Assembly (NCBI GenBank): GCA_044892505.1
Contig: CM097882.1
Span: 348,564,001-348,628,000 of the forward strand
Length of the DNA stretch: 64,000 nucleotides
Source of the DNA: Schmidtea nova
Lineage: Eukaryota
Direction: 5' to 3'
Positions 1-61,560 of this stretch are shown one piece after another; within the stretch, counting starts at the first letter, position 1, and the number at the start of each line of letters is the position of its first letter. Under the pieces are notes generated by a model that saw only the letters and a list, made by a program, of their open reading frames with translations, did no database searches and had not been told where the DNA came from. A program made the translations under genes and the position numbers.

Positions 1-282
1 CCATTCTTCTAACACTGGGTGATTTAAGCAATGCATTAAAAAATGATAAACTCCGATGATATATTTGTTTAGGATTAGATTTCAAAATACTTGGAATTTG
101 ATTACCATTAGGAATATTATTCATAATTAGTTTTTTTTCGACGGTGTATAACTGGTTTTAGAAACTGATTTTGAAACGGATTTCTTTCTCGATTTCTTTT
201 TCAATTTCTCACCCGCTTTTATACCTTTTTTCATTGTTTTTCTAGCCTTTATCAATCGCTCAAACTTTACTCGAGATTTCAT
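1..282 (-). CDS. Two tightly packed small ORFs: a 51-aa Lys/Ser-rich basic protein (282..127) and an ORF starting at 124 that runs off the window edge; virus/Polinton-like compact arrangement
   Basis: Manual translation gives MKSRVKFERLIKARKTMKKGIKAGEKLKKKSRKK...SKKN*, then TAA-TT-ATG, then MNNIPNGNQIPSILKSNPKQIYHRSLSFFNALLKSPSVRRM. The stop-start spacing and basic composition recall core proteins of Polinton-like elements (inference). Confidence 0.4.
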
Positions 283-619
283 TTAATATTATTAGTAATA
301 TAAAGTGCATTAACTTTGTTTATAAACAATTTGAAACACTGCATCATTTCTTAATTCCATAAATAAATTAAATTAATATTATTGTTTATATTTGTTTTAA
401 ATAATAGTTGTTTTAAATAATAGTTTCTCCGAATTCAGGAGAAAGAAAATATCCAGAAAGAAGTGGAATATCAATTGGAAAGAATTTCACATTGAGTGAT
501 CAGGATCTTTTAAAGATCAAAATATTTCATTTAAATAAACATTGCGGAGAAGGCTTACTATTGTTACCTTATTATAATAGTTGTCATTGTATTTGTTTCA
601 TTTAAAAATATTTTCAGTA

Positions 620-1085
620 ATGATAATAAACATCAATTATAAGGGTAAGACAGATGTGTCACACATGAACTTTCCAAATGGGAAACCACAGCAAATTGTA
701 GATAGAAGTTGGAAGTATCCAATAATATATTTTAAGACAAGCAGATAGAGAACAATGGTATCCAAGGAATTTATTAGTGATGAAAAAGTAAAGTTTTACG
801 GTTTAACAATACAATCGATTACTGTAACTGCAGATTTAGGATTTATTTGTAATTTAAATGATTTATCTAAATTAATAGAACGTGTTTACGAGCTTGAATT
901 ATTTCCAGTTTTGAGATATATCAAATATAATCCCATGTGTGAATATATTTGCAAGTGGTAAATTAGTCATATTAGGATTAAAAAACAAAGACTATTCAAA
1001 TATAGTTAATAATATTATTAATGATATAAAATCAATTATCGAAGATAAAGCCTTTGCTGATTCCATACTAACACGTGACTTATGA
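620..1085 (+). pseudogene. Intronless divergent TATA-binding-protein-like gene with a premature stop (746-748) and a frameshift near 938
   Basis: Joined frames read TIQSITVTADLGFICNLNDL...YELELFPVLRYIKYNPMC/VNIFASGKLVILGLK, matching TBP repeat 2 (IQNMVGSCDVKFPIRLEGL...[34 protein letters not shown]). An upstream in-frame MIININYKGK...PIIYFKTSR* resembles repeat 1. Confidence 0.8.

Positions 1086-1217: not shown

Positions 1218-1298
<81 letters not shown>
1218..1298. repeat. (TA)n microsatellite abutting an LTR end
   Basis: Pure TA run directly visible. Confidence 0.98.
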
Positions 1299-1302
<4 letters not shown>

Positions 1303-2112
1303 TTATGTTGAATATTTTTTTGTTATTGAATATATTGTGAATGAATAAGTGTAAAGAGATGTTGTAAAGCCCGAAAGAGTCACCGATTTATGTTGGGACA
1401 CTCGGGGTGCGTGTTATGTAATTGGGATGTATTCGTGTGTGCTTGTGTGTGTTTATTACGACAAATTATTAAAAGATTATAATAAAACCAAAACAATATT
1501 TATAATTACAACTTGTATTTATTAAACGAATAAAAAATAACAAATACTCACAGTGGATACATAGTCATAAATAATTCTTCATATTTTCCATTCAATTTTC
1601 TTTTGATATCAACTTTGAATTTTTTCTCAATCAATTCCTTTTAGAGATTATCCTATTGTCTTAGTTAAATTTTTATAATTTATTCTTAGTTATCTTTTAA
1701 TCACTTTTTCGGATTGATTTTTTTCTATTTCATTTGAATTTTTTTTTATTTTAAATTTCATTGTTATTATAATATAATAAACATAGGGGGATTAAACTAT
1801 GTCCAAACGGACGCCCACCATGATCAGAGCGGTAACAAAATACGTACTATCAACAATAAAGATAATAACAAAAAAAACAATGATAAAATTATACAGCATT
1901 CACATAACTTCCCCCTTTTAAACCGGAGGTTACAATATTTACAAAAATAAGTCGAACGAGTTCTGTACATATTTCTATTTATGTTTTGTGTTTGTATGTT
2001 GTGTTGTATTATGTTTTACATATCACGATAAAAAATATAAAATGCACAACGATCATATATTTGCATGCTATGTAGTGTTGTGTTGCTTTTAATTGCGTGT
2101 CTTGGCGTTGTA

Positions 2113-2901
2113 TTATTTGAAGTAGTCACTGTATTGTTTTTTATAGTGAGTGATAATAGCATTTTTGTCGAATTCTTTGACCATGTTTTTGGTGTTCTTT
2201 GTTTGGGGTTCGTTGGGGGATTTGAATGGGGGACTGCATGGAAATTGTTGATTGTGGTGATATGGTTTTGTTCTACGTATATTTATTCTTATTTTGTTTT
2301 TTTTATTTATTATTGTGGCCACGTTTTTGTTAATTTCGAGTAGTTTGAATGGGCCTTCGTATTTGTCTTCGGAACCTTTTGTGAATGGTTTTTTTATTAG
2401 TAAGTAATCGGTTGTTAGTATTATTTTACCATCGTTCTCTGAATTTGATCTATTTTTTAATATTCCTTTTAATTTGTTTTCGATATTCTCACTTTTTTTA
2501 GTTGTTATTTGTTTGTTTATTTCTTCGTTGATTTTTATGTTTGCTTTCTCGTCGAAAGTTACTAGTGTGATAAGTTTGTCGACTTTTTCCAGTAGTGTAT
2601 TTATTTCTGAGCCATGATTCATGTTTTGTTTCGATTTATTGTTCGTTGGACCCATTTGGATAACACCAATGTCCAATCTTGAATTGATTGTCGCCATGGT
2701 TTTGACAGTTTCTTTCTTTGTGATTGTGTTTTCAGTTAATGTTTTATTTTGGCAGTCTACTGTGAGATTGTAGTGTGCCAGAAAATTAGCTCCTATTTTG
2801 GATTGTTGAACAACAGCGATTATGAATGTCCAGCTATATTTCTTTGAATTAATTGTTAGAGTTAGGGTGTGTTCACCAAATTTTTTTATGCTTTGTGCCA
2901 T
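2113..2901 (-). CDS. 262-aa ORF fusing the C-terminal half of the aspartic protease to the integrase C-terminal GPF domain
   Basis: FGEHTLTLTI..KYSWTFIIA..IGANFLAHYNLTVD (protease C-half, no DTG/DSG) and KYEGPFKLLEINKNVATI...INIRRTKPY (IN C-terminus), with no RT motifs in between. Confidence 0.75.
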   Translation of the reverse strand: MAQSIKKFGEHTLTLTINSKKYSWTFIIAVVQQSKIGANFLAHYNLTVDCQNKTLTENTITKKETVKTMATINSRLDIGVIQMGPTNNKSKQNMNHGSEINTLLEKVDKLITLVTFDEKANIKINEEINKQITTKKSENIENKLKGILKNRSNSENDGKIILTTDYLLIKKPFTKGSEDKYEGPFKLLEINKNVATIINKKNKIRINIRRTKPYHHNQQFPCSPPFKSPNEPQTKNTKNMVKEFDKNAIITHYKKQYSDYFK

Positions 2902-3796
2902 TTCTGAGTTTTTTCGTTATATTTGCATGGTTTTGTGCATTTGAATGCTTTTTCTCCAAATTTGTTATGGAAGTTACAAAATTCTTGATTTGCTAGTCTG
3001 ATTTCTGGTTTCCAGAACTTTTGTCTATTTCCAGTTTATTTATTTTTATTGTTGTGAAAGTTTTGGTTTTGATTTCTTGTGTTTGGCTTAGGCCGGTTGA
3101 GCCTATACAATGTTTGATTTGGGTAATAGTATTGTTTTAGGTTTTATTCTTTAATTTCCTTTAGTTCTAATTTGAACCTTTTGTTTTCCGTTGCTATTTT
3201 GTCAAGTTGACTTATTAAAATACTAAGAATTTTATTTGTTTCGTTAAATTCTGTTCTTTCATTTTCTTCCTCATCTTGTTCATGGTTGGATGTTTTATTT
3301 TTGTTGTCATGAGTACTGTTTATACTGGGGTAAGTTCCTGCATTTATTTTATGGACCATGTCTGTCAGAATTTTGTTTTCATTTTGATTATTTTTAGTAG
3401 CTGAGGCTTGACATGATATTTGTTCGTTTGAGTCCAAGTTTGCTATTTTGGTTTGGACATACTCCAAATTTGTTTTAGTGGTTTTGGGAAATTATTTTGG
3501 ATATTATCCTTTTGCCTGTTATTTGTGAAAGATTCTTGTATCTGCTTTTTATTTGTTTGATTTCTGTTTGCTAATATGCTGCAGAGTTTTTCAAAAGGGT
3601 TGTTGTTTGTGAACATTTCGTCTATTTGATCGGAAATTTCATTGCGGATATGACTTGGAATTGCCGTTAATATTTGCGAGAATATTGGTTTTGGCGAGGT
3701 TATACCGCTCAAAGATAATGTAAATTTGGCTACTTTCAACCATGCTTGTAAAGAGCCATTTTCGCTTATAAAAAAATTTGGCATAGGGTTAATCAT
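2888..3796 (-). pseudogene. gag: Frameshifted Gag (CsRn1-like) with Cys/His knuckle
   Basis: MINPMPNFF...LQAWLKVAKFTLSLSGITS...ILTAIPSHIRNEISD...NPFEKLCSIL, and knuckle CNFHNKFGEKAFKCTKPC at ~2975-2920. Confidence 0.8.
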
Positions 3797-4004
3797 TGCG
3801 TAAGTTTTTTATGTTCTTAAAATTGTTTATTTTTTGTGTCATTTCTTTGTTTTGAGAAAATAAAATTGAGCTTATTAAAAGGATATGACCTACTGTATTC
3901 GGTCAAAAGATCTCACCTTCCTTTATAGTTCTATTATAACTATTCTAAAAGGAAAGGTGATTTGAAAAAAAAATTCGTCGAATGTGTGTTTTAATGTTTT
4001 TTTC

Positions 4005-4016
4005 CTTCTGACACCA
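4005..4016 (-). promoter_or_regulatory. Primer-binding site complementary to the tRNA-Leu 3' end
   Basis: Reverse complement TGGTGTCAGAAG immediately inside the 5' LTR. Confidence 0.8.
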
Positions 4017-4269
4017 ATTATTATGGTATTTTTGTTGATTTATGTATGGATACTTTTGTTAAAAAATGTTATTTCTTTTGTATGGTTGTGTATGAGAGGA
4101 AATTATCTAAGAGCCCGAGAGAGTCTCCGATTTAATGTTGGGACACTCGGGGTGTGTGCTTGTATAATGCAGGTTTCACAAAGATATAAATGATCAAAAA
4201 AAATAAACAAATAACAAATTCGAAACAATAAAACTGTAATAAAAAAACACACACAAAAATGTTACTTAC

Positions 4270-4628
4270 GTAGTAAATTAGTGTTCGATTAGTGTTTTTC
4301 TCTGGATCAAGTTTTCTTAAAGATCCAATTTTTGCTTTATTATCGTTATTTCGAGAATCAAATTTCGGGATCAAATTTTCTCAAAGAGCAAATTTTCCTT
4401 CAATTAAATTTTCTTTTAAATTTGCTTTTAGCATATGACAACAATAGGTTTTGTAGTAAATTAGCGTTCGATTAGTGTTTCCCTCTGAATCAAGTTTTCT
4501 TAAAGATCCAATATTTGCTTTATTAGCTTTATTTCGAGAATCAAATTTCGGGATCAAATTTTCTTAACAAGCAAATTTTCCTTCAATTAAATTTTCTTTT
4601 AAATTTGCTTTTGGCATATAACAACAAT
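4270..4628. repeat. Tandem duplication (period ~183 bp) within the right LTR
   Basis: GTAGTAAATTAG.GTTCGATTAG...GGATCAAATTTTC...GCATAT at 4270 and again at 4453. Confidence 0.95.
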
Positions 4629-5017
4629 TGTTTTTCTGGATTAATTTTGATTTTTTGATTTTTTTCTTTCAGCTTCCTTGACTTTCTTTCATTGGCTCCA
4701 ACAATCTTTCGTTAATTTTAGTTATTTAATTCACTATTTATTTTTCTATCGATTTTTTCAGATTTCTATAGCTTATTACTATAAAAGCTTTAAAATTCAA
4801 AATTTCTTAATTTGAAATTTAATTATTGTTTTTTTAATAATAAAAATATAAAAAACAGCAAGAAGGGGGAGAGTCCCCGGTGACCGCAAGGACACCGACC
4901 ATAATAATGCCGGCGCTAACAATGATAATAACGATAATAACAATAATAATCATAAAAATATCAACTAGGTATAACCTTTACAATAATAAACATTCTATCA
5001 TAATTTATATCTTCAAT

Positions 5018-5627
5018 ATGTCTAAACAATCAAATATTCTAAAAAGTGGTAAGGATTATACTTATTATTTTTCAATTTTCAATTATTTTTTTTTCAGAAA
5101 ACTGCTTGCTGTTCTATTTGCAAAATTGGAAGAAATGTATCCAAAGTTAATTCCGACATTATTATACACAGCACCAGAAATGTTACCATTCAAAATTCAA
5201 GTTTTGACGGGGATTGATGTACACCAAATAATAAAGGATCATCTGGATAATTTGAACAACAAATAACCTATATGGCGGAGCAAATATTGTGTGCATAACA
5301 ATGCGGCCACTGCATGGACAAAATTCTCAAATTCCATGTTTGGGTGCTCCAAAAAAGTCTCAATACCTATGAGGCTATTCATCTAAAGAAAATAGTTGAG
5401 GAGGATGAGCAAGAGAAAGAGTTGTGGCCGAATACAACACCGGAACCGTTGGATGACCCTGCTATGTCAATTATCGAATGTGATTGTCCGATTGAAAATA
5501 AAGAATGCATTGAATCTCCAGAATCACTTATTGTGACGAATGTTATAGAAAGGTTGAAACCGAAGTAAAAGACGAAGTAGAAGACGAAGAAGAAGAAGAA
5601 GAAGAAGAAGAAGAAGAAAATAAATAA
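5018..5627 (+). pseudogene. Unidentified disrupted coding segment with CxxC motifs and a poly-Glu tail; possible 49-nt intron (5049-5097)
   Basis: GTAAGG donor and TTTTCAG acceptor; frames read ACCSICK and YCDECYRKVETEVKDEVEDEEEE; several stops and frameshifts. Confidence 0.3.
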
Positions 5628-5972: not shown

Positions 5973-6512
5973 ATGCATAATACAAAGACATACATAACAT
6001 ATGCAATACAAATGCATGAATATGATTGGACAAAGACATATAGTCATCACTATAAATACAAAGACATTTTAAAGATATTGTCACAATCTATAAAAATGCA
6101 ATCACGTAAACAAAATTATGATGTCAGCGAAGAAAGAATATTCCCGACTGAAGTACAACCCGTTCAAATGTATTACGATAGCCGAATTTATTTTTTGATT
6201 GAAGAAATACCGTTTCGCTTGTCTTTTCCAGTAAAATTAACAAAGTCATTGTATGATAGTCTAGCTGTCATTATTGATAAAGAAGATATTATAGCACTAA
6301 ATAGAGTTTTTTCAAAAATAAATATCAATTTAATTTGTAAAGAAACGATGTACATCAACAACAGGAAAACTCGTTTCCAGGATGCTTTTCAAACTATCAA
6401 ATTCATGGATCAAGAACACTGGTTCGTTACGATAATTATTCAAAGATATAAGATCGATAAAAAGGAAGTCATAACTCCAATTTGTAGAATTGACAATGCA
6501 CGATATGCATAA
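5973..6512 (+). CDS. Orphan protein, paralog A (possible OB-fold/SSB-like)
   Basis: Open 179-aa frame whose C-terminal ~70 aa closely match the ORF at 10013 (CKETMYINNRKTRFQDAFQ..WFVTIIIQRYKID.KEVITPICRIDNARYA). Confidence 0.65.
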   Translation: MHNTKTYITYAIQMHEYDWTKTYSHHYKYKDILKILSQSIKMQSRKQNYDVSEERIFPTEVQPVQMYYDSRIYFLIEEIPFRLSFPVKLTKSLYDSLAVIIDKEDIIALNRVFSKININLICKETMYINNRKTRFQDAFQTIKFMDQEHWFVTIIIQRYKIDKKEVITPICRIDNARYA

Positions 6513-7864: not shown

Positions 7865-8516
7865 TGAGTCATCGAAGTAGGTAGAAGTGTGGAGCCGGAA
7901 ACAAAGACATTATGACTCATCGATGACTCATAACAAAGAACCCCTCGGGAGTAGAATTTTTTATGACTCATCGCAATGACTCATCGATGACTCATTTCAA
8001 ATTTTTCAAATTAATTTTTTAATTTAATTTAATTTTTTTAATTAAAAAAAAAATTTTAAAAATAACTTCTGCAAAATAGCTAATTCATCGATGAGTCTGA
8101 AAAACAAAAAAAAATTCAAAATAATCAAAATTGAGAAAGTTCAAAAAAAATTGCTTATTTTTCGATGTGTCATAAAAAGTTTTGATGAGTCATCGATTAG
8201 TAATCGATTGGTAAAATAAAATTTTTTAAAAAAACAGAAAATTTTTCGAAAATAAAAGATAAAAGAAATAAGTAAAAAAATGATTAAAAAAAGTAAATAA
8301 TAAAAATTTTTAAAAAAACAGAAAATATTTCAAAAAAAAAGGTTAAAAAAAGTAAATAAAAAAAGTTTTTAAAAAAACAGAAAATATTTCGAAAAAAAGG
8401 TAAAAAAAGATTATTTTTTTTAAATTGACCCCTCGCCCACGCAAAAGAAAATTGTCCCCTACCCCCCAGGGGGATTCGGTGACTCATGGTCTTTGTTTGA
8501 ATTTTTCCGCCCACGC
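7865..8516. promoter_or_regulatory. Cluster of 8 AP-1/TRE (TGA[C/G]TCA) sites and 2 EGR-type (GCGTGGGCG) sites
   Basis: TGASTCA at 7865, 7913, 7924, 7964, 7977, 7988, 8186 and 8480; CGCCCACGC at 8434 and 8508. Confidence 0.6.
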
Positions 8517-9700: not shown

Positions 9701-10012
9701 TCCAATACATTAGTAATATATGTCAACACACACACACATTAAAGGTAATGAACTTTCATACACGCACAACACAAGCACAACAATAATGAAAATCGTTAAT
9801 GAAATTCTCTATGTAAAAAGTTAATTTGTACATTCAATTTAATATATGACATCTCCACTGACAACAGATTACTACTAACGTTTGGAGAAATTTTTTCATT
9901 ACTTTACATCTATGTAACAAACTTACTTTGCCTCCTAATTTATAGCTAATTTTATCTTAATTAACTTTTCATTGGCTATTTTTAAAAATTATTTTGTTAA
10001 ATTCTTAGTAAA

Positions 10013-10456
10013 ATGCTATGTGTTTTCAGCAGCCAAAAATCTAGTCCAATCAAGAAGATGTTTGATGACTCGAATGAAAAGAAGATTAAACTAATTATCA
10101 AGCCAGTTCAAATGTTTCATGAGCATCAAATGTTTATCTTGGAAAAGGGAATTGAATTCAAATTCATCGATCTTGTCAAATTATTCAAGTCTCAATATTC
10201 AAACGTGATTGGGAAATTATATAAGCAAGATGTTGTTAGTGTCAAAAAGGTTTTGATGAAAATCAATAAAAACTTGACTTGCAGAGAAAATATATTTATC
10301 AACAATCGCAAAACACGTTTTCACGATGCCTTTCAATAACTCAAATATAAATATGACGAAAACTGGTTCCTCAATATTACAATCCAAGGCTACGAAATCA
10401 ATTCCAAAGATGTTATGACACCGATTTGGAGAGTAAATGGCGCTAGGTTAGCGTAG
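10013..10456 (+). pseudogene. Orphan protein, paralog B, with one in-frame stop at 10337-10339
   Basis: Reading through the stop gives CRENIFINNRKTRFHDAFQ*LKYKYDENWFLNITIQGYEINSKDVMTPIWRVNGARLA*, matching 5973-6512. Confidence 0.7.
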
Positions 10457-13277: not shown

Positions 13278-13789
13278 TGTAGTGCCTTAGATTATAAATT
13301 TTATTTTTAATTAATTAATTGATTAAATAATTATTGAATAGAAAATTTAAATAGCTTTGTTTTAATATTTACTGTTTTAGTACATTTTTCAAATAAATAT
13401 AATATGGTCCAACAAGAACTAATGCAATTTCTTCCAATCAACATGAATCAATTTTCCCAATATCAGCAATCAATGTTGTCGCCAAACATTGTCATAATGC
13501 CGGTAATGAATCCATCAGAAACCACTCAAACTGCTGCGTCACAATCTAATCAAATGTTGGCTCGAACCGATCAATCTAACAATCCAATTTCATATATCGT
13601 TGGGCCACCCGCATTTTTCAGTATGCCAAGTAGTGGATCAAACCAAACAAACTGCACAACAACGAGTCATGATGCTGGATCTATAATCAATAAAAATCAA
13701 TGGCCTAGACTGTCAAATATGCCCTCGATGGTAATGCTGAATATATTTTATGTCTATCCGGCTTTTATCAAATTAATTGTTTTTCTACA
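13278..13789 (+). repeat. 5' LTR (512 bp) containing the start of an ORF at 13404
   Basis: Direct repeat of 18174-18686 with TG...CA ends. Confidence 0.95.
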
Positions 13790-13791
13790 AA

Positions 13792-13805
13792 TGGTGTCAG
13801 AAGTG
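13792..13805 (+). promoter_or_regulatory. tRNA-Leu primer-binding site
   Basis: TGGTGTCAGAAGTG, 2 nt after the LTR, complementary to the known 3' end of eukaryotic tRNA-Leu (...CACTTCTGACACCA). Confidence 0.9.
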
Positions 13806-14033
13806 ACAAACGTAAGTTTCATACCTTTCTTATGTAAATGCTTAACTTTGTCATTTATATCTTTCATTCATAAAATATTTATTATGTTCTTTTGCAATTG
13901 TATTGAAATTTTTAAAAGCAATTTTCTTTTTCTAATATTTAAAATTACTACAGCAGTTTCGCCTACCTTTTCAGATTTCATTTACCTCCAAAACAACACC
14001 CTCAAAAATTTGAATTCGCCAAGCCCATCTTCA

Positions 14034-14246
14034 ATGGCAAACAAAAAAATTAACTTCACTGTACGCCACAACAACATTTTACATACAGTAAAAATTACCC
14101 TGACAAATTTCTTTAGGGACATAAAACATTTTCTTTCAAAAGAAAACAACGATTTCCATATATCAAATAACGGAATTCCTATCACAGATCCTCTTTCGGT
14201 TCCATTAAATTCAATAATCACACTCTTTGTACGGGCAAGAGGCGGT
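14034..14246 (+). CDS. Ubiquitin-like domain (71 aa, C-terminal RARGG) fused in frame to Gag
   Basis: MANKKINFTVRHNNILHTVKITLTNFFRDIKHFLSKENNDFHISNNGIPITDPLSVPLNSIITLFVRARGG aligns with the ubiquitin fold: IK (V26-K27), G47, D52 and SIITLFVRARGG vs STLHLVLRLRGG. Confidence 0.8.
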
Positions 14247-15100
14247 TCCAGAACAAACAATGTCCATAACCCTTCCACAGCCATAGGCCGCACTCAACTG
14301 ATTTTCTTAGATGCCGACGGCACCCCATCATCTTGGTTCCGAACTTTTGAGGCACGCATAAAAGCCATCCCCAAATCCAGGCAAGATTTTCTCTTAGATG
14401 CAATACCCGACGAGTTAATGTCAGAATAAGGCTCACAAATAGCTGACGCGTTAGACTCATAAACCCCATACGAATCAATCAAGGGGGTCATATTAAAAAA
14501 TAATTACCCACGCGCACTTCAGCGATCGAAAAATTATCAAAACCCACCCCAAACGCCGACCAAGCCCCATCATCCTTTTTCCAACAACTAGTACGTGAAC
14601 TCGAGGAAGCCCATGTCGGTCTATCAAAAAACACTGCTGTCCAATGTCATCATTTTTTAACAGCTCTCCCACATCACGTACAGTCCGCTCTTCTCGTCGT
14701 CGATTCCGATGATCCATTTCATCTAGCAAAAATCGCTGATAAGTTGGTCACACTACCACCTGTCCGAAACGTACCAACTACCATCGCATCAGTTTCCGAC
14801 CCTTCAATACAGGAACAGATATCTTCTTTGACAAAAACTGTTGATGCGATACTCAAATCATCTCAACCAAATGCACGCCTCCAAAAAACGACAAGTCGAA
14901 TTCTTTACCTCTTCTGACTTGTTTTTTTCACAAGAAATTTTCTTCCGAAGCCAGAACATGTCATATCGGATGTTCATGGCCAAACCCCCTTCCACTTTGA
15001 GAATAATTCCTATTTGCATTTATCACAACATTTTCGGTTTACACTCACAAAAATGCCTTGTAGGTTGCCCTTTTGTAAGCCGTCTCTCAAATAAATCGCA
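14247..15100 (+). pseudogene. gag: Gag capsid/nucleocapsid, disrupted by stops and frameshifts
   Basis: PSSWFRTFEARI..LDAIPDELMSE*..TPYESIKGVIL; APSSFFQQL..FLTALPHHVQSAL..LAKIADKL; knuckle CIYHNIFGLHSQKCLVGC. Confidence 0.9.
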
Positions 15101-18085
15101 TGACAAAAATTATTCCAATTCTACACAAAATCCTAGCTCCGCTGTCTGTCAACCCTGAATTTTCAGGCGGGGTCCTTGCAATCAACAATATCTTCACTGT
15201 TGAAGCAAACTTTGATTCCAGCTCATCTATTCATTTTCTCGTCGATTCTGGCTCGTCATTTTTAATCCTTCCAACAACTTTCACACCAGATTTCAAATCT
15301 CTGTTCATTGTCTTAGCCGCCAACAGCACACCTATTCAATTTTTGGGAACAAAAAAACTTCCATTCAAAATACCAACATTAGACTCAACTTTCACTTACA
15401 TTTTCCACATAGTAGACACGATCCACCCAATACTAGGCTCTGATTTCTTATGCAAACAATCCATCATGGTATATTGCAAAAACCGCAAGTTGTTCACTCT
15501 AAAACAAGACATTGAATATACATCAAAAATTCATCGTTGAATGTAGCATCAGTCTCTACCCAGACATCTCCACTGACACAACTAAACTCGATTCAACAGA
15601 TTTCCACGACGTAAAGCACTCAAAACACATTGGACATCGACCAATCAGCCAATCCAGATATAATGCACGACATAATCTAATTAATTACTGACAAATATCC
15701 AAATATCATCACTAAACCAGCTATCATACCACCCACTACCCTGTCGACCCACTATATTTACACATTGCCATGCATACCACAACACAATCGAGCCAGACCT
15801 CTCTCTTCCACCAAATTCAAAGCAGTCAAAGCCGAATTCGTTATTCTAGAAAACGCAGGCATTATACGTCGTTCATCTTCACTATGGGCTTCACCAATAC
15901 ACGTAGTCACAAAGAAAGATGGATCATTTAAACAACGCGGAGATTATTGACAACTCAATCAAGTAACAGTGCACGACGCATACCCAATGCCACTCATCAA
16001 AGATGTAATAATACGCTTTTCTCAATCTACCGTGTTCTGAACTATAGACCTTTCGAAAGCATACCACCAATTTCCCATCCATATCGACGACGTCCCCAAA
16101 ACTGCCGTCATTACACCATTTGGGAATTTTGCATACATGTTCATGTCTTTTGGTCTCAGAAATGCAGCTCAGTCCTTACAACATTTCATGGATACAATTT
16201 TTCGTGACGTTCTTCACACTTTCGCATACCTCGATGATATCATCATTGCGTCACCTGATCGAGGTAGCCACGTGGATGACTTACACACGGTCCTTGACAT
16301 ATTGAACCACTACAATTTACAGATAAATGTGAATAAATGTATTTTTTTTCAAGAACGCGTCAGATTCCTCGGTCATATACTTTCATCTACTGGTTGTGAA
16401 CCTCTACCCGAAAGACTCAACCTAATCCGCAGCTTTCCTTTGCCAACCACCGTGACACAATTACGTAGCTTCTTAGGCATCGTCAACTTCTGCCATAGAT
16501 TCATTAAAAACGCATCTCACATAACGGCACCTCTTTCAACACTGAACACAGGAAAAAAGAATTCTGTTATCAATGGGTCCGACACAACACGTGACTCATT
16601 CAACAAAGTCAAAGACGCTCTAGCCAAGATAAACACTCTTCACTAACCGCGTCACGACCTCCCATTCACTCTGACAACTGATGCATCCAATATTGCTGCA
16701 GACGCAGTTCTTCGCCAAATAAAGGACGGTATCTCACTGCCAATTGAATTTTTTTCGAGGAAATTCTCATTGGCAGAGTCAAAGTACAGTGCATTCGACA
16801 GAGAATTAATTGCTATTTTTAGCAGTCAAACATTTAAGTCACATTTTAGAAGGAAAACAATTCACAATCTTCACCGCCCACAAACCTCTCATCCACTGCC
16901 TCACCATGAAAGACCCATCGAACAGAGTACATCGTCAGATAACATACCTATCAACTTTCAACATTAAGTTCATTCAATTTCCAGGAATTAAGTCCACATA
17001 ACACCTCATACGACAAAAAGTAACCTAATTCTCATTATTCAAAGACATGAAACAGTGGGTATCGGAATGTACAGGCTGCCAAAAACACAAAACGAACAAA
17101 CATACTAAACCACCAATCACACCATACCCGACTGGTTCAAGATTCGACATACTCCACATCGACTTAGTAGGCAAACTTCCCGCCGACGACGGATTCTGCT
17201 ACATCATGACAATGATTGATAGGAAAACACGGTGGTTCGAATCCGTCCCAATTTCCGACATCACTGCAAAAACGGTCGCACACGCTTTAATATCCACCTG
17301 GTTTTCACGTTATGGAATTCCACCCGCCATAATCACAGTCCAAGGAACACAATTCGAATCAGATCTTTTCGAACATTTGACCACCAGCCTCGGCATCAAA
17401 CATTTACGAACGAGCTCATATCACCAACAAACAAACGGTCTCGTAGAACGCGCCCACCGTACTTTAAAGTCATCCCTCAGAATACTCTCAACGACAACTT
17501 CATGGACCAAAGTATTACCATTCGTCTTGCTTGGTTGGCACAACACACCAAACCGCTCAAGTGGCGTGTCACCTTTACAACTTTGGTTCAGTTCAAACAC
17601 CTTCATGCCCAACAAACTCATAGACCTCCAAAATGAATCACTACTAGAGAAGATCAACCTCACCCGCAAACATTTTCTGAGTCTTGATACAAACCCATCT
17701 TTCACATACTCAACTTCATACAAACCGTTTAAACCACAATCACTTTCCTCCGCCACCCACGCATGGATGAAGACAATTGACTCATCAAACTTCAAACATA
17801 AATACAAAGGCCGTTTTCGCATTATCGAACTATACAAAAAACATGGCGAAACTAGAAATAGATAACAACCACGTTATGGTCAATCTATCACGATTAAAAC
17901 CATCCTTTTGCACCCTTGAGTATGATGAACCACCAAATTATCACATCACAAAAGAAGATCTTATAGAGGAAGACATTCTAGAAGACACGGAACAACTGAT
18001 GACTCTTACAAACACGCCCGATTCCTTACGTCCTCATAAAAACCCACCATTCTTTTCAAGACGAACACGCAAACTCCCTCAATAA
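15100..18085 (+). pseudogene. pol: Pol (protease, RT, RNase H, integrase), with stops, frameshifts and a deletion at the RH/IN junction
   Basis: FLVDSGSS (PR); WASPIHVVTKKDGS, DLSKAYHQ, FGLRNAA, YLDDIII (RT); TDAS, YSAFDRELIA (RH); HIDLVG, NGLVERAHRTLK, KYKGRFRII (IN). Confidence 0.96.
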
Positions 18086-35366: not shown

Positions 35367-36660
35367 GTGGTGCGGTCAAAAGGTTTCCGGCCTACCCCAG
35401 AAAAAAGTAAAAGCAAGCAACCACAACTATATTTTTATCAACACCAATACCATTACTTCTCCAACCAATTACCTCCGGCATCGAAACACTTCTGCCAACA
35501 ACCAGTGAGGGCTTCGAATGCCCCATGGTAAAATGAGGGTGGAAGCTGGTCAAAAATCCGATTTACAGCCTTCTCTAAATCGCCTACATCCATGAAATAC
35601 TGTCCCCGCAGTTGCTTCTTCAATTCCGTAAATAGGCAGTAATCTGAGGGAGCCAAATCAGGGCTGTATGGAGGGTGGCTAATGATCTCGAAGCCACAAT
35701 CATTGAGCTTTGCTTGGGAAATGCGGCTGGTGTGAACTGGCGCATTGTCATGTTGAAACTAGTGAGGGAGACCATATAGTTTTCGACACTTTCTACGAGC
35801 TTGCTCAACGAGATTACCGTAATATTCTCCGCTGATTGTCCGTCCTTTCTCAAGAAAGTCGGTGAGGATCACTCCATTATTACTCTAAAACACAGTTAAC
35901 ATGAGTTCCCGTCTGTGCGACTTTCCTGAACGAGACTTCCAAACTTTTCCTTCTTCCGGTTTTCTCCATTCCATAGACTCCCGCTTTGATTCAGGCTGAT
36001 GTAAGGACAACGGTGTCTCATCAACAGTGAGGATGTTTTGGATAAATCTTTCTCCATACTTGCGGTAAATGGCGAGGTTCATGAGACACGCATTCTTTCG
36101 GTTATTGCACATCTCAGTTGTAAAAAAGTGAGGCACAAAGCGATACACCACCTTGTTGAAGTAAAGGTCTTTCAATAATTGCACTACGGTGCCGTGTGAT
36201 ATTTGTAGGGATTCTTCCAGCTGCCTGGTAGTTATACGGCGATCTTCCAGTACCATTTTCTCCAATTTTTCCTTCACATCTTCATTTCTCGAAGTCGTTG
36301 GTCGACCCTCTCGTTCCTCACCTGACACACTTTGCCGACTCCTTTTGAATTCAACAATCCAAAACTTGATGGTAGACTGAGAAGGACACTTTTCACTATA
36401 GGCTCGATTCAGATTTGCTATGATTTCCTGGTTGGTTTGGCCGAGATGAACACAAAAGCAAATAGCACTGCGATACTGAATCTTTTCCAGCGAATGCATT
36501 TGCAACGACATTTCCATCTGCAACAGATAAAGTAAATGGATTAGGTCAATAAGATTTTCAACATGAAATTGTCAATAAATTTCCAATAAAATAAACATAT
36601 TTCCATTAAAAAATCAATTTGTTAAGTAGGGTAGGCCGGAAACTTTTTGACCGCACCACG
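35366..36660 (-). mobile_element. Full-length mariner (DD34D), 1295 bp, inactivated by a stop and a frameshift, inserted at a (TA)n tract
   Basis: TIRs CGTGGTGCGGTCAAAA.GTTTCCGGCCTACCC; TA on both sides; HTH, TVDET, HDNAP, YSPDLAPSD. Confidence 0.97.
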
Positions 36661-47690: not shown

Positions 47691-49938
47691 CGTTCACAAA
47701 TAATTGAAAAATCATCAGTTGTTAATTGTCATATTAAATTGATAATATTACTGTGCTTTTTCATTTTTATGCCAATTTTATGCAAATAAGTCTTTTATAA
47801 ATTGTATATTAAATTTCATGTGAATTTAATTAATTGTGAATTAATTTTATTTATTGACCGATCGTGGTAGAAATCCATAATTATTATAATTATGATGTAC
47901 AGGGTAAACCAATAAGTTTTTTCTGGTGCTCATACTCAGCTTTCCAATGCTGTAATGAGTGTATAGGTCTGCAACTTTGTGTGTTTATGCTATATATGTT
48001 GTAGATTTTTAAAATTAAAAAAATCACTTATTAATAATTTTTAACATTGCTATTAACTTTGATATGTCTTACATGGATTAAGCACATTTAATAAATTTCT
48101 TGTTTGACTGAAATACTGTTTGTTTTCATTAGAACACGTCGATTTGAAATGAATTTCGCACGAGAGGATATCCGCAAGTTAATCTACTACAATTGGAAAC
48201 GTGGATTAGTGCCTTCCCAGATTGCAAATGAAATAAATTTGACACTGGGGAAGGACACAACAAATGAGCGCACTTGTCGACGCTGGCTTGCAAACTTCAA
48301 GGAAGGAAACTTTGATGTTGAAGACCAAGAGCGATATGGGAGGCCCTCTCTTGGATTAAGCACATTTAATAAATTTCTTGTTTGACTGAAATACTGTTTG
48401 TTTTCATTAGAACACGTCGATTTGAAATGAATTTCGCACGAGAGGATATCCGCAAGTTAATCTACTACAATTGGAAACGTGGATTAGTGCCTTCCCAGAT
48501 TGCAAATGAAATAAATTTGACACTGGGGAAGGACACAACAAATGAGCGCACTTGTCGACGCTGGCTTGCAAACTTCAAGGAAGGAAACTTTGATGTTGAA
48601 GACAAAGAGCGATATGGGAGGCCCTCTATTGATATCAACGACAAAATTCTAGCTCTTTTTAAGAAGCACAACAGTACTATGGAAATGAGCGTGGAGGCTG
48701 GAGTTTGTCAGCAGACAGTAGGGGATAGTGAGGACTCGAGCACAGTTTTTTCAACTAGCAACGGTTGCTAGGGTAAATACACACATCATTATATTCCTCA
48801 ATGCAGGTGTTGCCAAGGTGAACGTGCACACACATCAATATATATATTCCCTGAGGAGCCTGTTGCCAGGGTAAACACACACACCAATATATTCCTCAAG
48901 GCAGGTATTGCTAAGGTAAGAACACACATTAATATATATATAATTACCGGGTAAGATGTTGCTAGGGTTAATACACACACCAATATATATTCCCCAAGGC
49001 AAGTATTGCTAAAGTAAGCACACAAATCAATATATAATTACCAAGGAAGATGTTGCCAGGGTTAATAAACACATCAATGAATATTCCCCGAAGAACCTGT
49101 TGCTAACGTAAAAAAAACACATTAATCTGTATACCCCGGGGAACCTGTAATTAAGGTAAAAACACACACATACCATTATTATTACTCGCACTAAGTAAGA
49201 CATGATAATATTTTTATTTGAATTGAATGGCATTTTTTGTTTTAATTAAGTGACTAACATTACGAATAGCTGTTCCACATATTTTTACATTGATAACTTT
49301 CGAAATATAATTAAATTTTAGTTCAATGAACTTTGTAATAATAATAATAATAATAATAGTATAAAATGGTGATTCCTTGGTAGCAGCATTAAGTATTAAA
49401 TTAATTAATAAATAAGTAACAAAATAAGCCGTTGCTGCAAAAATAATTTTATTAAGTGAGAAAATTTTCGATTATCAAATAATCCTCGCCAATCTCTAAT
49501 TCGGCAAATAACTGGTATCTTCATTCATTCTGTTGTTTCTTTTTTCGTGATTTCTCTTCCTTTTCATTGGATGTTAATCTGATTAATAAATTTTTTTAAA
49601 TTCTTAATTACTTTTTAAATGTTTTTTTTGGTTAAAAATTTAAAATATAAAATAAAAACTCCAAAATTTTTAAAAATTTCTCTAAATTTCTTTTCGAATA
49701 AATAAATTTATCCTTTTTTTTAAATTAAAAATTTTTAAAATTTTTATTGCCTGCATTCTACATTTTTAATTTTCTAACCCTTAATATTTGATTTTATTTT
49801 TTTATAATTTTACAATTTAATTATATTATGTCTCTTTGAAATGCCCATAAATTCTCTGTACTATCAATTTTCTTTCTCCATTTTTTAATATCTTCCTTTT
49901 ACTTTTATACTTTCTTATTTGTAGAACCACATGTTTTT

Positions 49939-50390
49939 TTAACAAGATAGTAAGTGGGCGATTTCGCTAACTTCCTCTTTAGAGTTAATTTTTGGGTGTT
50001 TGTCTCTAATGAGAATAGCTTCTTTAAGTCTGAGATTTTTCTCGTCGTGTTCGTTTGTCAATATTCTCACTGATATTAATTTTTCCTTATTTTCTGTCTG
50101 ACATTGGTGAAGATGTCTATATACAGATGACTTTCCACCAGAATCAAGATGTTCTTTAATTCTCTGATGCAAAGTCCGAAGGGTGCTTCCGATGTAAATT
50201 TCTTTGCATTTATTACACATGATGCTATAGACAATGTTCTTGCGAAAGCATAATTTCTTTGGTGTTTGGCAATTTTCCATCTTACATGTATTTTCCTTTC
50301 TCGTGTTGTTAGCTAGAGCTTGCCTTAATGTCTTAGATCTATTTGCCAAACGAATCGGAAGGCCAGTGAGATTAAGTTCTTTGAAAGAAC
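49939..50390 (-). mobile_element. Penelope-like element 3' fragment (family A), GIY-YIG endonuclease
   Basis: C..KNIVYSIMCNKCKEIYIGSTLRTLHQRIKEH..LRLKEAILIRDKHPKIN. Confidence 0.9.
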
Positions 50391-50716
50391 TACTTACATA
50401 GGAGAAAAGAACTTTTCGCACCCGACTTAATAGACACACTAAAAACAAAACTAGTAATTATTACGAACACTGGGAGAAAGTACATAAAACAACTCCATCT
50501 ATAGAAGAAACAAAATGCCAGATTCTACAAGAGGGATTCAAAAATTCATTACAAAGATTAGCTTCCGAGACTTTTTTCATAAAAAAATACAAACCGTCCA
50601 TCAACATTCAATTCGCACAAAAAATTAAAATAAATTTTTTCATCCAATAAAATCATTAAAAAATATTAAAAAAATAATTAAGGCTACTATTTATGATTAA
50701 GTTAATATAACGATAG

Positions 50717-50759
50717 AAATACACACTTGATAAAGGCTGTGCCGAAATATTGTGTTATT
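50717..50759 (+). ncRNA. Minimal type I hammerhead ribozyme-like motif (U3-A8 variant)
   Basis: AATAC-ACAC-TTGATAA-A-GGC(tgt)GCC-GAAA-TAT-T-GTGT-TATT: stem I ACAC/GTGT, 3-bp stem II, palindromic ATAT stem III, AUU triplet. Confidence 0.7.
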
Positions 50760-50849
50760 GTTTATAAAAAAAATTTTGATCTATAGTCATTATGAGAATT
50801 ATTGATAATAATAATAAAAAAGATCAAAGGTGAAAAAAGATAATTATGA

Positions 50850-50915
<66 letters not shown>

Positions 50916-51005
50916 CATAATTATCTTTTTTCACCTTTGATCTTTTTTTATTATTATTATCAATAATTCTCATAATGACTATAGATCAAAATTTTTTTTT
51001 ATAAA

Positions 51006-51049
51006 CAATAACACAATATTTCGGCACAGCCTTTATCAAGTGTGTATTT
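51006..51049 (-). ncRNA. Second copy of the minimal hammerhead, in the sense of the family-B Penelope ORF
   Basis: Reverse complement of 50717-50759. Confidence 0.7.
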
Positions 51050-53211
51050 CTATCGTTATATTTACTTAATCCTAAATAGTAGCCTTAATTATTTTTTTAA
51101 TATTTTATAATGATTTTATTGGATGAAAAAATTTATTTTATTTTAATTTTTTTGTGCGAATTGAATGTTGATGGACGGTTTGTATTTTTTTATGAAAAAA
51201 GTCTCGGAAGCTAATCTTTGTAATGAATTTTTGAATCCCTCTTGTAGGATCTGGCATTTTGTTTCTTCTATAGATGGAGTTGTTTTATGTACTTTTTCCC
51301 AGTGTTCGTAATAATTACTGGTTTTGATTTTAGTATGTTCATTAAGTCGGGTGCGAAAAGTTCTATGTGTTTCTCCTATGTAAGTAGCGTCACATTTTTG
51401 ACAAGAAAGTTTATATACTATATTTTTGGAAAAGCAAAAGCATCGGGTTGTGGAACGACAAAGACATTTATGTTTGGAGATGTTGGAAATTGGTGGCTTT
51501 CGGAGTTGTGATTTTAACGGTGCGGAGGTTATGAACGTTGGACGGATGTGGATAGGCAAATCTGTTTGATTAAAAATGTTGGTGATTTTGTTGGCTGTAG
51601 TGTCATTTAGGAAAGGTAATCTTAGATATGTTGTGTGTTTGTTATTGTTATTGTGTTTCTGGCGTTTTCTATTGTTGCGTNNNNNNNNNNNNNNNNNNNN
51701 NNNNNNNNNNNNNNNNNNNNNNNNNNNNNNNNNNNNNNNNNNNNNNNNNNNNNNNNNNNNNNNNNNNNNNNNNNNNNNNNNNNNNNNNNNNNNNNNNNNN
51801 NNNNNNNNNNNNNNNNNNNNNNNNNNNNNNNNNNNNNNNNNNNNNNNNNNNNNNNNNNNNNNNNNNNNNNNNNNNNNAAATTTAATTATATATCGAAAGT
51901 TATCAATGTAAAAATATGTGGAACAGCTATTCGTAATGTTACTCACTTAATTAAAACAACAAATGCCATTCAATTCAAATAAAAATATTATCATGTCTTA
52001 CTTAGTGCGGGTAATAATAATGGTATGTGTGTGTTTTTACCTTAATTACAGGTTCCCCGGGGTATACAGATTAATGTGTTTTTTTTACGTTAGCAACAGG
52101 TTCTTCGGGGAATATACATTGATGTGTTTATTAACCCTGGCAACATCTTCCTTGGTAATTATATATTGATGTGTGTACTTACTTTAGCAATACTTGCCTT
52201 GGGGAATATATATTGGTGTGTGTATTAACCCTAGCAACATCTTACCCGGTAATTATATATATATTAATGTGTGTGCTTACCTTAGCAATACCTGCCTTGA
52301 GGAATATATTGGTGTGTGTGTGTGTTTAACCTGGCAACAGGCTCCTCAGGGAATATATATATTGATGAGTGTGCACGTTCACCTTGGCAACACCTGCATT
52401 GAGGAATATAATGATGTGTGTATTTACCCTAGCAACCGTTGCTAGTTGAAAAAACTGTGCTCGAGTCCTCACTATCCCCTACTGCAGACAATTTGAAATC
52501 ATCTGCTTGCAACGGACATGCGTTACCTGTGCAACCACTGGGTCCCACACAAGTTATCCGAGCAACAAATGATTATGATGGATATTATATCGCAGGGTGC
52601 TACAATCACTGCCGATGTTTACTGCGAACAGCTGTCCCGTCTGGTGACGGCAATACAACAAAAGCAACGCCGTCTTCTTGGTTGTGGGTTTCATCAAATT
52701 CACTATCTCCACGACAATGCACAACCCCAGTCAGCAGCCAAATCTGTGCAAAAACTTACTGACATTAGTTTTACTGTTCTGTCACATCCCTCTTACTCCC
52801 CAGACCTCGCACCATCCGATTTCTATTTGTTTTCCCCTTTGAAATCTGCGATTCGTGGAAGAGATTTCAACGGAGTTGAAGAAATTCAAGTGGTTCTGGT
52901 TTCTTGGTTGGACAGTAAACCACACAGCTTCTTCGCCGATGGAATCAGGAAACTGCCTGATCGATGTCGCCGATGTGTCCTTCATAATGGTGCCTATTTT
53001 GAAAATCTCTCTGACACAGATGATTGACATTTTTGATGTTTTGAAATTTATACATGTTTCATCGGACAAAACTTATTGGTTTATCCTATATTGTTTTTTC
53101 GTTAGCTGAATTTATTAAAATATAATAATAAGGTAAATATTTCAATCTTAAAAATATCCTGATCGCTTTTTTCTTAATATTTTCAGGAGAAGGAAAATAT
53201 TCAGAAAGAAG

Positions 53212-58683: not shown

Positions 58684-59941
58684 TTAAATAAAACTGTCGT
58701 CATGAATATCTTCAGTTGGATCTTGAAATTGTTGATCTGCATTGATTCTTGGATCAGTATGTTGAAATATAACCAAGTCACCCTCTCTATAATGGCGATA
58801 TGCCCAACTTTTATTTTTTGCTACCCATTTCCTTTTATCATCTGCGTTGGTCAGTGCAGTCTTTTCATTTTTAATGGTGAATATTTGATGATTTTTACTT
58901 GTTATTCTGGTTTGGGGAACAGAAATATTTTGGTTGTTATTAAAACAATCCAGGTACGACTGATGCTTTATGTCAGTACCCTTCAATGTTACCCCATTTA
59001 GCTTTTTAAGTTTCGTCGTCATCTAAAAGACTGTAACATTTAGGTCTGAGAAACACCAACTTCTTATACTTAAGCCTTTTGTTCTCGTCTTAGAACTTGC
59101 CAATGACAGAATTAAGGTTCCTACTGTATAAATGGTGATTTGGATCATAATTGGAAGTGTCAAGCAAGTTATTTCTTATCATGACCGGTAAAAGAATATC
59201 AAGCCTAAAATTTCTTATATCAAAAAAGAATGAATCGGTGTCACCAGCATCGATGTTAATTTCACAGTTGAATTCGTTACGATATTTTTGTAACTCTTCA
59301 TACTGGATCTGGTACATTCTAAGTTCAGATAGATCCACTAGAGTTTGACCAATGTAGCTCGGCCTATCCAAACACACCGATTCCTGATTCAGCAAGACTG
59401 CAACCAAGTATTTGTCAATTTAGAATGTTATTTTGAAAGTTGTTTTAGAAGTATATGTAATCAACTTAGAAGCTGAATTACATAATCTTAAATTTATGCC
59501 CTTTTAAATTTTTTCTACGGTTTTACCGTAAAGAATATTATTTACTAATTTGTAATAGTTGTTACCAAGAGCATTACTTGATTCTGCTCTAATTTTGGTA
59601 TTGATATCGAAGTAATCCTTCAAAATACATGCTTGTTAAAATTTAAATGCCCAATGGAATGAAGAACATAGTTCTTCTTGGGAAAATGCGAAAGCATCAA
59701 CTTCTCAACATTTGAGCCAGATGGACACATCTTTTCAGCGGCAACTGGAAAATCATCCAGCTTGTCCTGAATAAAATCAGGAATTTCTAAATCGACATCT
59801 AATGTAACCCTTAATGTTATTGCTTCTAAATCAGCAGATTCACAGTAATAAATAATTTTATTTAATTTTTCCCTATCAGTTACCCATTTAAATTCTTTAT
59901 AATGAAGTGTTTGGCTAAGAACCCACCCATATAAATTATTT

Positions 59942-59995
<54 letters not shown>

Positions 59996-61560
59996 CTCTT
60001 CCATATAAATTCAAAAACATTTCACTTGTAGTAGAAATAAAACTTATATTCAAACTTGGAAACTTATTTAAACCATATTTGAGGATATGATGTAAATCAT
60101 ATCAGCGTAAATTATGAAAAATTACGGGCATGATGATGCATTTAGAGCAAGCTGCTCCCAAATAATTACCCGTATAATGTTCATGATCTTTAACCGGATT
60201 CTTCAAAGATTTATTACACAAATAACTAATTGCAGAACTACGAAACGATCTAATTTTTGCACGAGAAAAATATTTCATTTTCTTTTTGGAATTATTTATA
60301 AAGTAAGTTAAACTACTTTTTCTCCTATATCATTGATTTCAGTCAAAAACTCTTCTACACAGTTAAGACCATAAAAGCTTTTATATAATTTTCGCCGGTA
60401 AAGTTATTAATTATCAGTAAACCAGCAGAAATATGCAAATGACATTGAAAATACTTATCGTCCTTGAGTAAAACATCCTCAAAATTGGCATTTACGACGA
60501 AAAGGGGAGTAACAATCTTTGACTAATCTTTAAATTCCAAGTTCTTATCTGAAGGTAAAGTGTACAAAGTTGTACCTAATTGGTATTTTGTGCATAAAGC
60601 CTGATGTTTCTCAAAAGCTTCAGTCAATCTAAAACCATTCAAATAACGCTCGCACAAAATGCTCTGAACCCTAACATCAGTTACAGAAAGAGTGTCACTA
60701 TTTAAAAGTCTATTTAGATTAGTAACTGCGATATAATGAAACGAGTCATTTTCTTCTAACAAAATCAAATTAATTTGAGTGCCACCTACAACCTTTGACC
60801 TATGAATAATATCTACAAATGATTGTTTAAATACTTCATTCTTTTCATAATAATCAATTAAATTGCTTTCATCATACGAAAGGATATTTATTGCCAAGTC
60901 GGGGTTTTTCACTTCAAATTTAGAAATATTGCATAATTTCATCGGAAGATCAGAAGGATCAAAAACAAGGTCTGAAATACTATAATTATTATAATAATAA
61001 TTTCACCGCATCATATTTTAAAATAGCCAAAATCCTATATATAAAACACAAGTTATCGGTATTTTTTACATTGACAGTGCAATGTTTTGAATTTATTGAT
61101 AGTGGGGTTGAAAAATAACCTTGAACACTCAATCGACTTATTTGTGAATATTAAGTTTAAATCTTATTTCTTTAATTTTGTTACTTCACCGATTGCTACC
61201 ATTTTCGCAGACTTTAGTAATTTTTTCACTTAATAGAGCAATACTTTCATCTAAAATGTTATCAGTCATGAGTTTTGCGGAATTTGATATTATAAAAGAT
61301 TGGAATTGTCAATCCTTTTCAAATTCTACATCAATGCAGAATTGTACTTTTACATATCCCATTTCAGAAATAATTGAATTAAATATTTTTAATAAAGGCG
61401 AAGGGATAATTAATTAATTTAAATTTAAAGAATTCACATCCATTTTAACAGTGGTGTGTGATTTTTTTCAAATTATATTTAACCGAGGGTTCAACATAGC
61501 CGCCATATTGGACAACATATAAATTAGGAATAACTAAAACATTGTCATTTGATGAATGAA
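58684..61560 (-). pseudogene. Polinton/Maverick protein-primed PolB, largely complete but disrupted; (TA)n inserted at ~59949-59991
   Basis: INLILLEE..HYIAVTNLNRLL..CERYLNGF..HQALC; KDHEHYTGNYLGAACSKC (endonuclease VII-like); NNLYGW; DRPSYIGQTLVDLSELRMY; AGDTDS; LLDTSNY; ALTNADDKRK. Confidence 0.92.

Follow-up and report, generated by a model that had tools for sequence, protein, structure and literature searches.

The window, a stretch of 64,000 nucleotides of the Schmidtea nova genome, carries near its first end a decayed TBP-like gene of the Maverick/Polinton family, here called mini-TBP, in the company of other broken element genes (Table 1). The reading frame of this gene starts with the ATG at 620, ends with the stop codon at 1083-1085 and is interrupted twice, by an in-frame premature TAG at 746-748 and by a frame change inside a TG run at 935-941; its open piece of 68 codons begins at the ATG at 755. 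When an X was placed at both breaks, a reading of 154 residues was obtained, which matched the Pfam TBP profile (PF00352) in a single stretch, residues 63-133, at an E value of 2.7e-9. The score of this match was 37.2 bits, and that of an open copy 55.3 bits, likewise over one stretch (curated cut-off of 22.9). Among solved TBP structures, the best match reached 2.5e-14. The mini-TBP gene is considered real because open natural copies encode 155 aa with 83-89% identity to the window reading. An earlier note, made from the letters of this DNA, had proposed that the 68-aa ORF piece hid a product of about 155 aa behind the TAG at 746 and a slip near 938, and that the C-terminal half of this product resembled TBP repeat 2 with the motifs ELFP and IFASGK; both motifs were found in the window reading, and both proposals were borne out. 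At the nucleotide level, the window gene was 93% identical to the nearest fetched copies, and most sampled open copies had a nearest neighbour at 95-100% identity. The window copy is an old, decayed Maverick insertion.

Table 1. Features of the Maverick/Polinton element and its surroundings in the window
Feature	Position	Strand	Basis or remark
Broken basic Lys/Arg-rich element gene, running on upstream of the window	1..282	-	tblastn, 78-100% to open copy
A32-like packaging ATPase, 16-codon stub, most of the gene gone	310..360	-	head-to-head with mini-TBP
TATAAACA box, putative late promoter	317..324	-	~42 nt upstream of the basic gene start codon; family statistics
TATAAACA box, putative late promoter	383..390	-	~30 nt upstream of the ATPase start codon; sequence and family statistics
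Insertion of ~160 bp in the ATPase/TBP spacer	412..573		missing from other fetched copies
mini-TBP gene, broken copy	620..1085	+	sequence, Pfam, matches to solved TBPs
Stretch not found in other copies, separating mini-TBP from the next element gene	1227..4986		microsatellite and retroelement-like ORF remnants
orfR1, broken next element gene, Cys-rich with acidic tail	4989..5621	+	tblastn and blastn to other copies
orfR2 element gene, often adjoining mini-TBP in relatives	6096..6512	+	comparison with other copies
Small leftovers of the terminal repeat region, recognised from other copies	7957..8030	+	sequence match
Decayed Maverick-type PolB	58684..61464	-	tblastn, ~49% to the N-terminal half of the family PolB at 59994-61464; ORF pieces

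The immediate surroundings of the gene were partly as the earlier note had described them. It had placed mini-TBP head-to-head with small basic ORFs at 1-282; a basic element gene does lie there, although as one broken gene, and the true neighbour is the packaging ATPase, of which the stub at 310-360 is left. The product of the basic gene is likely a virion core protein, by analogy with the Maverick proteins that bear the QQGG motif. On the other side, mini-TBP is followed by about 3.7 kb of other DNA, within which the ORF at 2113-2916 gave no Pfam match; orfR1, beyond this stretch, gave no significant Pfam match either. The PolB gene of the same copy lies just upstream of the window start, the capsid and integrase genes upstream of mini-TBP are also broken, and only remnants of the terminal inverted repeats (TIRs) are left. 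Polinton-type PolBs had been claimed for the window as well, and one remnant is indeed present at 58.7-61.5 kb, but about 57 kb away from mini-TBP, and it likely belongs to a separate element copy.

The remainder of the window holds debris of several mobile elements. A second orfR2-like gene (54% identity) was found at 9789-10453, accompanied by a 223-bp inverted match to the DNA upstream of the window, and this segment is probably a fragment of another Maverick copy. A decayed LTR retrotransposon of the Ty3/Gypsy type, with RVT_1 and rve matches, occupies 13404-18085. Remnants of Mariner transposases lie at 35453-36571, 48095-48771 and 52497-53027, two of them recognised by Pfam matches and that at 48095-48771 assigned by sequence likeness, and the pieces of a GIY-YIG endonuclease at 49939-51946 are likely Penelope-like elements.

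Beyond the window, mini-TBP is a fixed, conserved gene of a high-copy Maverick/Polinton family. The search of the whole genome (1.25 Gb) returned 18,491 mini-TBP candidates, and the 150 that were scored were all near full length and 83-89% identical, 144 of them having no internal stop. A degenerate pattern of 11 mini-TBP codons occurred at 6,075 places, a lower bound on the copy number, while its reversed control occurred at none. Along contig 1, the first 40 consecutive pattern matches comprised 31 open and nine broken mini-TBP genes, and the packaging ATPase stood head-to-head with mini-TBP in 39 of these 40 copies, being open in 26. Conversely, when 20 loci were sampled starting from PolB, all seven places bearing an ATPase also held mini-TBP; a Maverick devoid of mini-TBP was found neither among these seven places nor in the scans of viral contigs. 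The near-identity of the copies suggests recent spread only.

Open copies of the element measure about 16-18 kb, and their genes follow the order TIR, PolB, orf133, protease, major capsid, orf126, penton-like, integrase, basic protein and ATPase, after which comes mini-TBP on the opposite strand, followed by orfR1, orfR2 and the second TIR. The earlier note had asked whether intact copies neighbour PolB, integrase, ATPase or capsid genes, and this full Maverick gene order agrees with its proposal that the TBP-like factor belongs to a mobile element or endogenous virus. In three of three copies examined, the TIRs were about 1.2-1.4 kb long with AGTAG/CTACT ends, and target duplications of 6 bp, a Polinton/Maverick feature, flanked the element. 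Apart from that duplication, the features listed for Polintons/Mavericks in the available text of PMC6431247 match those of this element.

The individual genes were identified by different routes. The ATPase of open copies matched Pox_A32 (Pfam, E 2.3e-6), the integrase matched rve above the cut-off (E 1.4e-8) besides a weak chromo match, and the N-terminal half of PolB matched Endonuclease_7 (Pfam). PolB motifs are present in two copies, and the PF03175 matches of the genome lead to elements bearing mini-TBP. The cysteine protease was recognised by eye from its His and Cys motifs. The major capsid protein had no sequence match in the PDB; its predicted model (pLDDT 70.8) resembled the double-jelly-roll capsids of iridovirus, PBCV-1 and mavirus in Foldseek, with E values from 3e-15 to 1e-12. 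The minor capsid (penton-like) protein is a putative one, named from its gene position. Tandem pairs of penton-like genes were seen in one Maverick family of this genome and one metagenome contig (six loci in all). In three other loci, about 5.5-6 kb separates two diverging PolB genes, and the interval contained no capsid, ATPase, integrase or TBP gene of those tested for; this arrangement is possibly a palindromic PolB-only derivative. The integrase gene, in turn, carries a short AT-rich GT...AG insertion at the same place in five of five copies examined from this genome and in none of four metagenome relatives. Probably, this lineage has acquired a spliceosomal intron here, and, if so, host RNA polymerase II (Pol II) transcription would be implied.

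The mini-TBP gene has been kept under purifying selection. Among the 40 consecutive copies, the 26 open ones of equal length gave an overall dN/dS of 0.128, with 0.094 in repeat 1, 0.073 in repeat 2 and 0.53 in the tail. A value of 0.134, obtained from the best-scoring copies, was set aside because choosing copies by score favours open frames and because two of them were duplicates. Since dN/dS in repeat 1 is 0.094, the cut-down repeat 1 described below is maintained. At least two further divergent Maverick families of the same genome possess mini-TBP at 56-61% identity (L037:108-578, L039:4765-5247) and, since these divergent families both carry the gene, it predates their split.

Searches also retrieved relatives, metagenome proteins among them. 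The X-containing window reading retrieved two and a divergent open copy 129, mostly of 144-160 aa, and a profile search against representatives at 50% identity returned 59 clusters at E<=1e-30. Another element gene was present in 37 of 56 metagenome contigs and a hallmark gene (ATPase, integrase, penton-like or capsid) in 21, counts that are not independent, since several contigs resemble near-copies; the 19 contigs with no other element gene are 1.0-3.1 kb long. Scans of viral contigs with TBP, capsid (as a single protein and as an alignment) and ATPase queries gave no relatives, and all Atlas clusters found with mini-TBP as the query were TBP clusters, at a recognition score under the usual threshold. 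In metagenome loci, thirteen of them noted in this respect, the gene in front of mini-TBP is often orf133, a small one that lies downstream of capsid; in other contigs, mini-TBP adjoins orfR2 or the ATPase. The gene changes place yet remains within the element.

These comparisons bear on the origin of the gene. That it is a recent retrocopy of a host TBP or TRF, passively carried and decaying, could be read from its lack of introns, the broken state of the window copy and the nine broken copies among the 40 sampled. However, mini-TBP is far closer to metagenome Maverick proteins (43-63% identity over 121-142 residues in 18 relatives) than to any of four host paralogues, for which local identity was 26-38% over 64-94 residues and, in one case, 48% over 31. 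At least four TBP-family genes were found in the host genome, at five loci: two TBP-like genes, one of them present twice, and two divergent ones, both repeats lying in a single open frame. A tree of 27 rows separated the host TBP-family genes from all mini-TBPs at 100/100 support, as the earlier note had expected of a gene that was not a host retrocopy. With no nesting among host paralogues, a dN/dS of 0.13 and a wide family behind it, the retrocopy was rejected, and we regard it as having almost no chance of being correct. Mini-TBP and its relatives form instead a separate lineage of about 100 clusters. In a wider tree of 116 rows, from which rows outside 135-310 aa were omitted, 104 family rows attached to canonical TBPs through one long branch with modest support. 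No donor lineage is claimed, because the FastTree placement next to particular canonical TBPs is a long-branch one with weak support.

The architecture of the protein was derived from a predicted model of an open copy (pLDDT 94.7) and its alignment, as sequence profiles detect repeat 2 only. About residues 1-142 of this model aligned to the whole TBP core (yeast residues 66-240) with Z scores of 11-12.4 and an rmsd of 2.3-3.0, while unrelated folds scored 6.1 or less; by Foldseek, the model matched known TBPs at 4e-9 and giant-virus TBPs more weakly. Mini-TBP is thus predicted to form a full two-repeat saddle, the same as that of cellular TBP (PF00352; yeast 1ytb, human 1cdw, archaeal 2z8u). 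Repeat 2 is complete in the model. The earlier note had called repeat 1 more divergent, and it does differ; it is, however, cut down rather than merely divergent, since model and alignment place a loop where the first helix and stirrup should be and the long convex helix is absent. The repeats are joined by a short linker, of 19-21 residues in the copies of this genome, whereas that of TBP has 34. In this way, mini-TBP, at about 145-160 aa, differs from cellular TBP by its shorter linker, the missing long helix of repeat 1, a proline for a stirrup phenylalanine and a predicted polar DNA face, and stands apart from it as a long-branch lineage; it keeps three of the four intercalating phenylalanines, the repeat-1 asparagine and the C-terminal stirrup glutamates.

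These traits recur throughout the family, as counted in 104 rows, clusters below 50% identity. Yeast numbering is used for both repeats and was set by computed alignment offsets for repeat 1. The intercalating phenylalanines Phe38 (yeast Phe116) were kept in 99 rows, and Phe95 and Phe111 (Phe190 and Phe207) in 103 each, while the fourth, Phe99 of the repeat-1 stirrup, was replaced by proline (Pro23) in 92; the nearby Phe18, conserved in 90 of 97 closer relatives, might substitute for it. On the DNA face, Val122 was changed to arginine (Arg44) in 98 rows, Thr124 to methionine (Met46) in 102, Asn159 to serine or threonine in 103 and Leu205 to asparagine (Asn109) in 103, and Ile194 was mostly arginine (69) and Val203 mostly cysteine (73). 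The long helix absent from repeat 1 is the docking site of TFIIA, TAF1, Mot1 and Brf1 in cellular TBP, and TBP and TFIIB are a textbook pair whose association needs DNA. Changes at 194, 203 and 205 (TBPm3) alter TATA specificity, according to PMC1636458; two of these three positions are mostly changed in mini-TBP, and the third, 205, almost always. The C-terminal stirrup glutamates, described as TFIIB contacts in PMC10005294, were kept as Glu91 in 93 rows and Glu93 in 103.

A promoter-like box was observed before many genes of the element, in the form TATAAAC[AG]. It was scored as ATAAAC[AG] at 18-80 nt before the ATG, in genes dereplicated at 80% protein identity from which those with an unclear start or less than 100 nt of upstream sequence had been dropped. 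In this count, the box preceded 43 of 60 packaging, capsid, integrase and other non-TBP element genes in the sense direction and none of the 60 in the antisense direction, against a background of 3.0%; statistical significance is overstated, as motif and interval were post hoc choices and the elements are related, and distances refer to the ATG rather than to mapped starts. By gene, it was present before the ATPase in 11 of 11 cases, the basic gene in 7 of 8, capsid in 7 of 8, orf133 in 9 of 11, integrase in 3 of 4, the penton-like gene in 5 of 10 and orf126 in 1 of 8. The box was found before only one of 35 mini-TBP genes, and within 80 nt of none of five PolB ORF starts. The canonical TATAWAWR, on the other hand, preceded 15 of the 35 TBP genes against 9 of the 60 other element genes, being missing before 20 of the 35 in the interval tested. 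The box has been retained before the ATPase in 36 of 40 sampled copies of this genome, and the window copy retains two. Where it falls within an upstream coding sequence (orf126), eight of eight Ile-Asn pairs are written as ATA AAC, compared with 8 of 78 elsewhere.

The motif admits a reading that has nothing to do with TBP, since ATAAACA fits the Forkhead consensus, TATAAA is a known poly(A) variant and, in tandem genes, the motif sits near the end of the upstream gene. ATAAACA or ATAAACG would then be a Forkhead-type site or serve the upstream gene as a variant poly(A) signal, while mini-TBP would act independently of it as a general early factor. However, the motif precedes all 11 ATPase genes, including those head-to-head with mini-TBP, which have no same-strand gene end nearby; it is strand-specific (43 against 0), and before the ATPase start it is concentrated at -31 to -47, a TATA-like placement. 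Such an explanation is therefore judged improbable.

With a slight preference over the alternatives taken together, we favour the intact mini-TBP as the late-gene promoter factor of the element, a one-protein switch analogous to the vTBP/TATT system of herpesviruses. Early in the cycle, host machinery would transcribe mini-TBP, in many relatives by way of a canonical TATA box. Mini-TBP would then bind TATAAAC through its rewired polar DNA face, with arginine and methionine at Val122/Thr124, serine or threonine at Asn159 and asparagine at Leu205 (yeast numbering), and the kept C-terminal stirrup glutamates may bring TFIIB and Pol II of the host to the genes for packaging, capsid and integrase. 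Without the repeat-1 helix, mini-TBP may escape the host regulators that would bind there.

The same box might instead be read by the host. We assume that the C(-25) variant of the TATA box in PDB entry 1qn3 reads TATAAAC. Wild-type TBP was crystallised on that variant, as stated in the title of the entry (1qn3), and PDB titles indicate that host TBP can occupy variant boxes; one of the at least four host TBP-family genes might read TATAAAC. Mini-TBP would in that case be a decoy tying up TFIIB or NC2, a repressor, or a factor bending the terminal repeats for replication or integration. With one of four intercalating phenylalanines and the central Asn/Thr contacts lost, it could bind DNA more weakly or non-specifically. 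Against this stand the replacement residues of the DNA face, which are near invariant across the 104 rows and fit a specific new target, and the box itself, whose non-canonical C is fixed and which is distributed over gene classes differently from the canonical box of the TBP genes. We consider host reading of the box unlikely, though less so than the Forkhead or poly(A) reading, and the late-factor model was retained as the preferred one.

Several known systems can be compared with the late-factor model. Mavericks, Polintons and adintoviruses share with this element the protein-primed PolB, rve integrase, A32-like ATPase, cysteine protease, double-jelly-roll capsid, TIRs and 6-bp duplications, but the available text of PMC6431247 and PMC8502044 describes no regular TBP gene in animal Mavericks and no promoter box specific to a gene class. 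A label 'TBP' does appear in the legend of Fig. 5 of Starrett et al. (PMC8502044; bioRxiv 10.1101/697771) for MELD viruses, with no accompanying text in the portion available. The gene so labelled is likewise TBP-like, and the virus that carries it is of midsize, with linear dsDNA and a PolB resembling that of adintoviruses; it is, however, a label only, within the section on non-animal datasets of PMC8502044, and one text supplement of that study gave no match to TBP or TATA. In the available text of PMC10675990, TBP is mentioned solely for mirusvirus-like elements, and in that of PMC12220804 solely among the references. A literature search, limited to papers outside subscription, found none describing a TBP family or a late box in animal Mavericks.

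The closest functional analogy is offered by the vTBP of beta- and gammaherpesviruses. Late promoters with TATTWAA are recognised by KSHV ORF24, whose DNA face is polar (PMC12529657), and mini-TBP would likewise combine a viral TBP having a polar DNA face with a non-canonical late box. According to the same source, ORF24 acts in a six-protein viral complex (with five viral partners), binds Pol II directly and is predicted to be incompatible with TFIIB (PMC12529657). Mini-TBP, in contrast, consists of the core alone, with the TFIIB stirrup retained, and homology between the two was compared at the level of the shared fold only; its 155 aa include no Pol II-binding extension, and the neighbours orfR1, orfR2 and orf133 have no Pfam assignment. 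The TBP-like proteins of large nucleocytoplasmic DNA viruses were found as fold matches in BFVD (best E 2.2e-7), although they are mostly larger and only 7-23% identical to mini-TBP. Such viruses encode an RNA polymerase of their own, and no gene for one was seen in the Maverick elements with mini-TBP.

The papers found do not describe how the expression of capsid genes is timed in Mavericks, and a TBP dedicated to this task, together with the box that matches it, would supply a direct, testable mechanism. As a natural minimal TBP, with one regulatory surface dropped and the TATA-specificity residues changed, mini-TBP is useful for structure-function work on TBP and may furnish an orthogonal promoter system. 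More speculatively, leaky expression from thousands of open copies could disturb the TFIIB-dependent transcription of the host. In its widest form, which we hold to be evenly poised between right and wrong, the proposal is that a broad Maverick clade comprises true viruses whose early/late programme is run by a single cut-down, re-specified TBP, made by the host from a normal TATA box and then redirecting TFIIB and Pol II to the TATAAAC boxes of the virion genes. If this is true, one animal genome would hold, thousands of times, a natural pair of altered-specificity TBP and promoter, and the conserved box and factor would argue that Mavericks keep a real viral life cycle.
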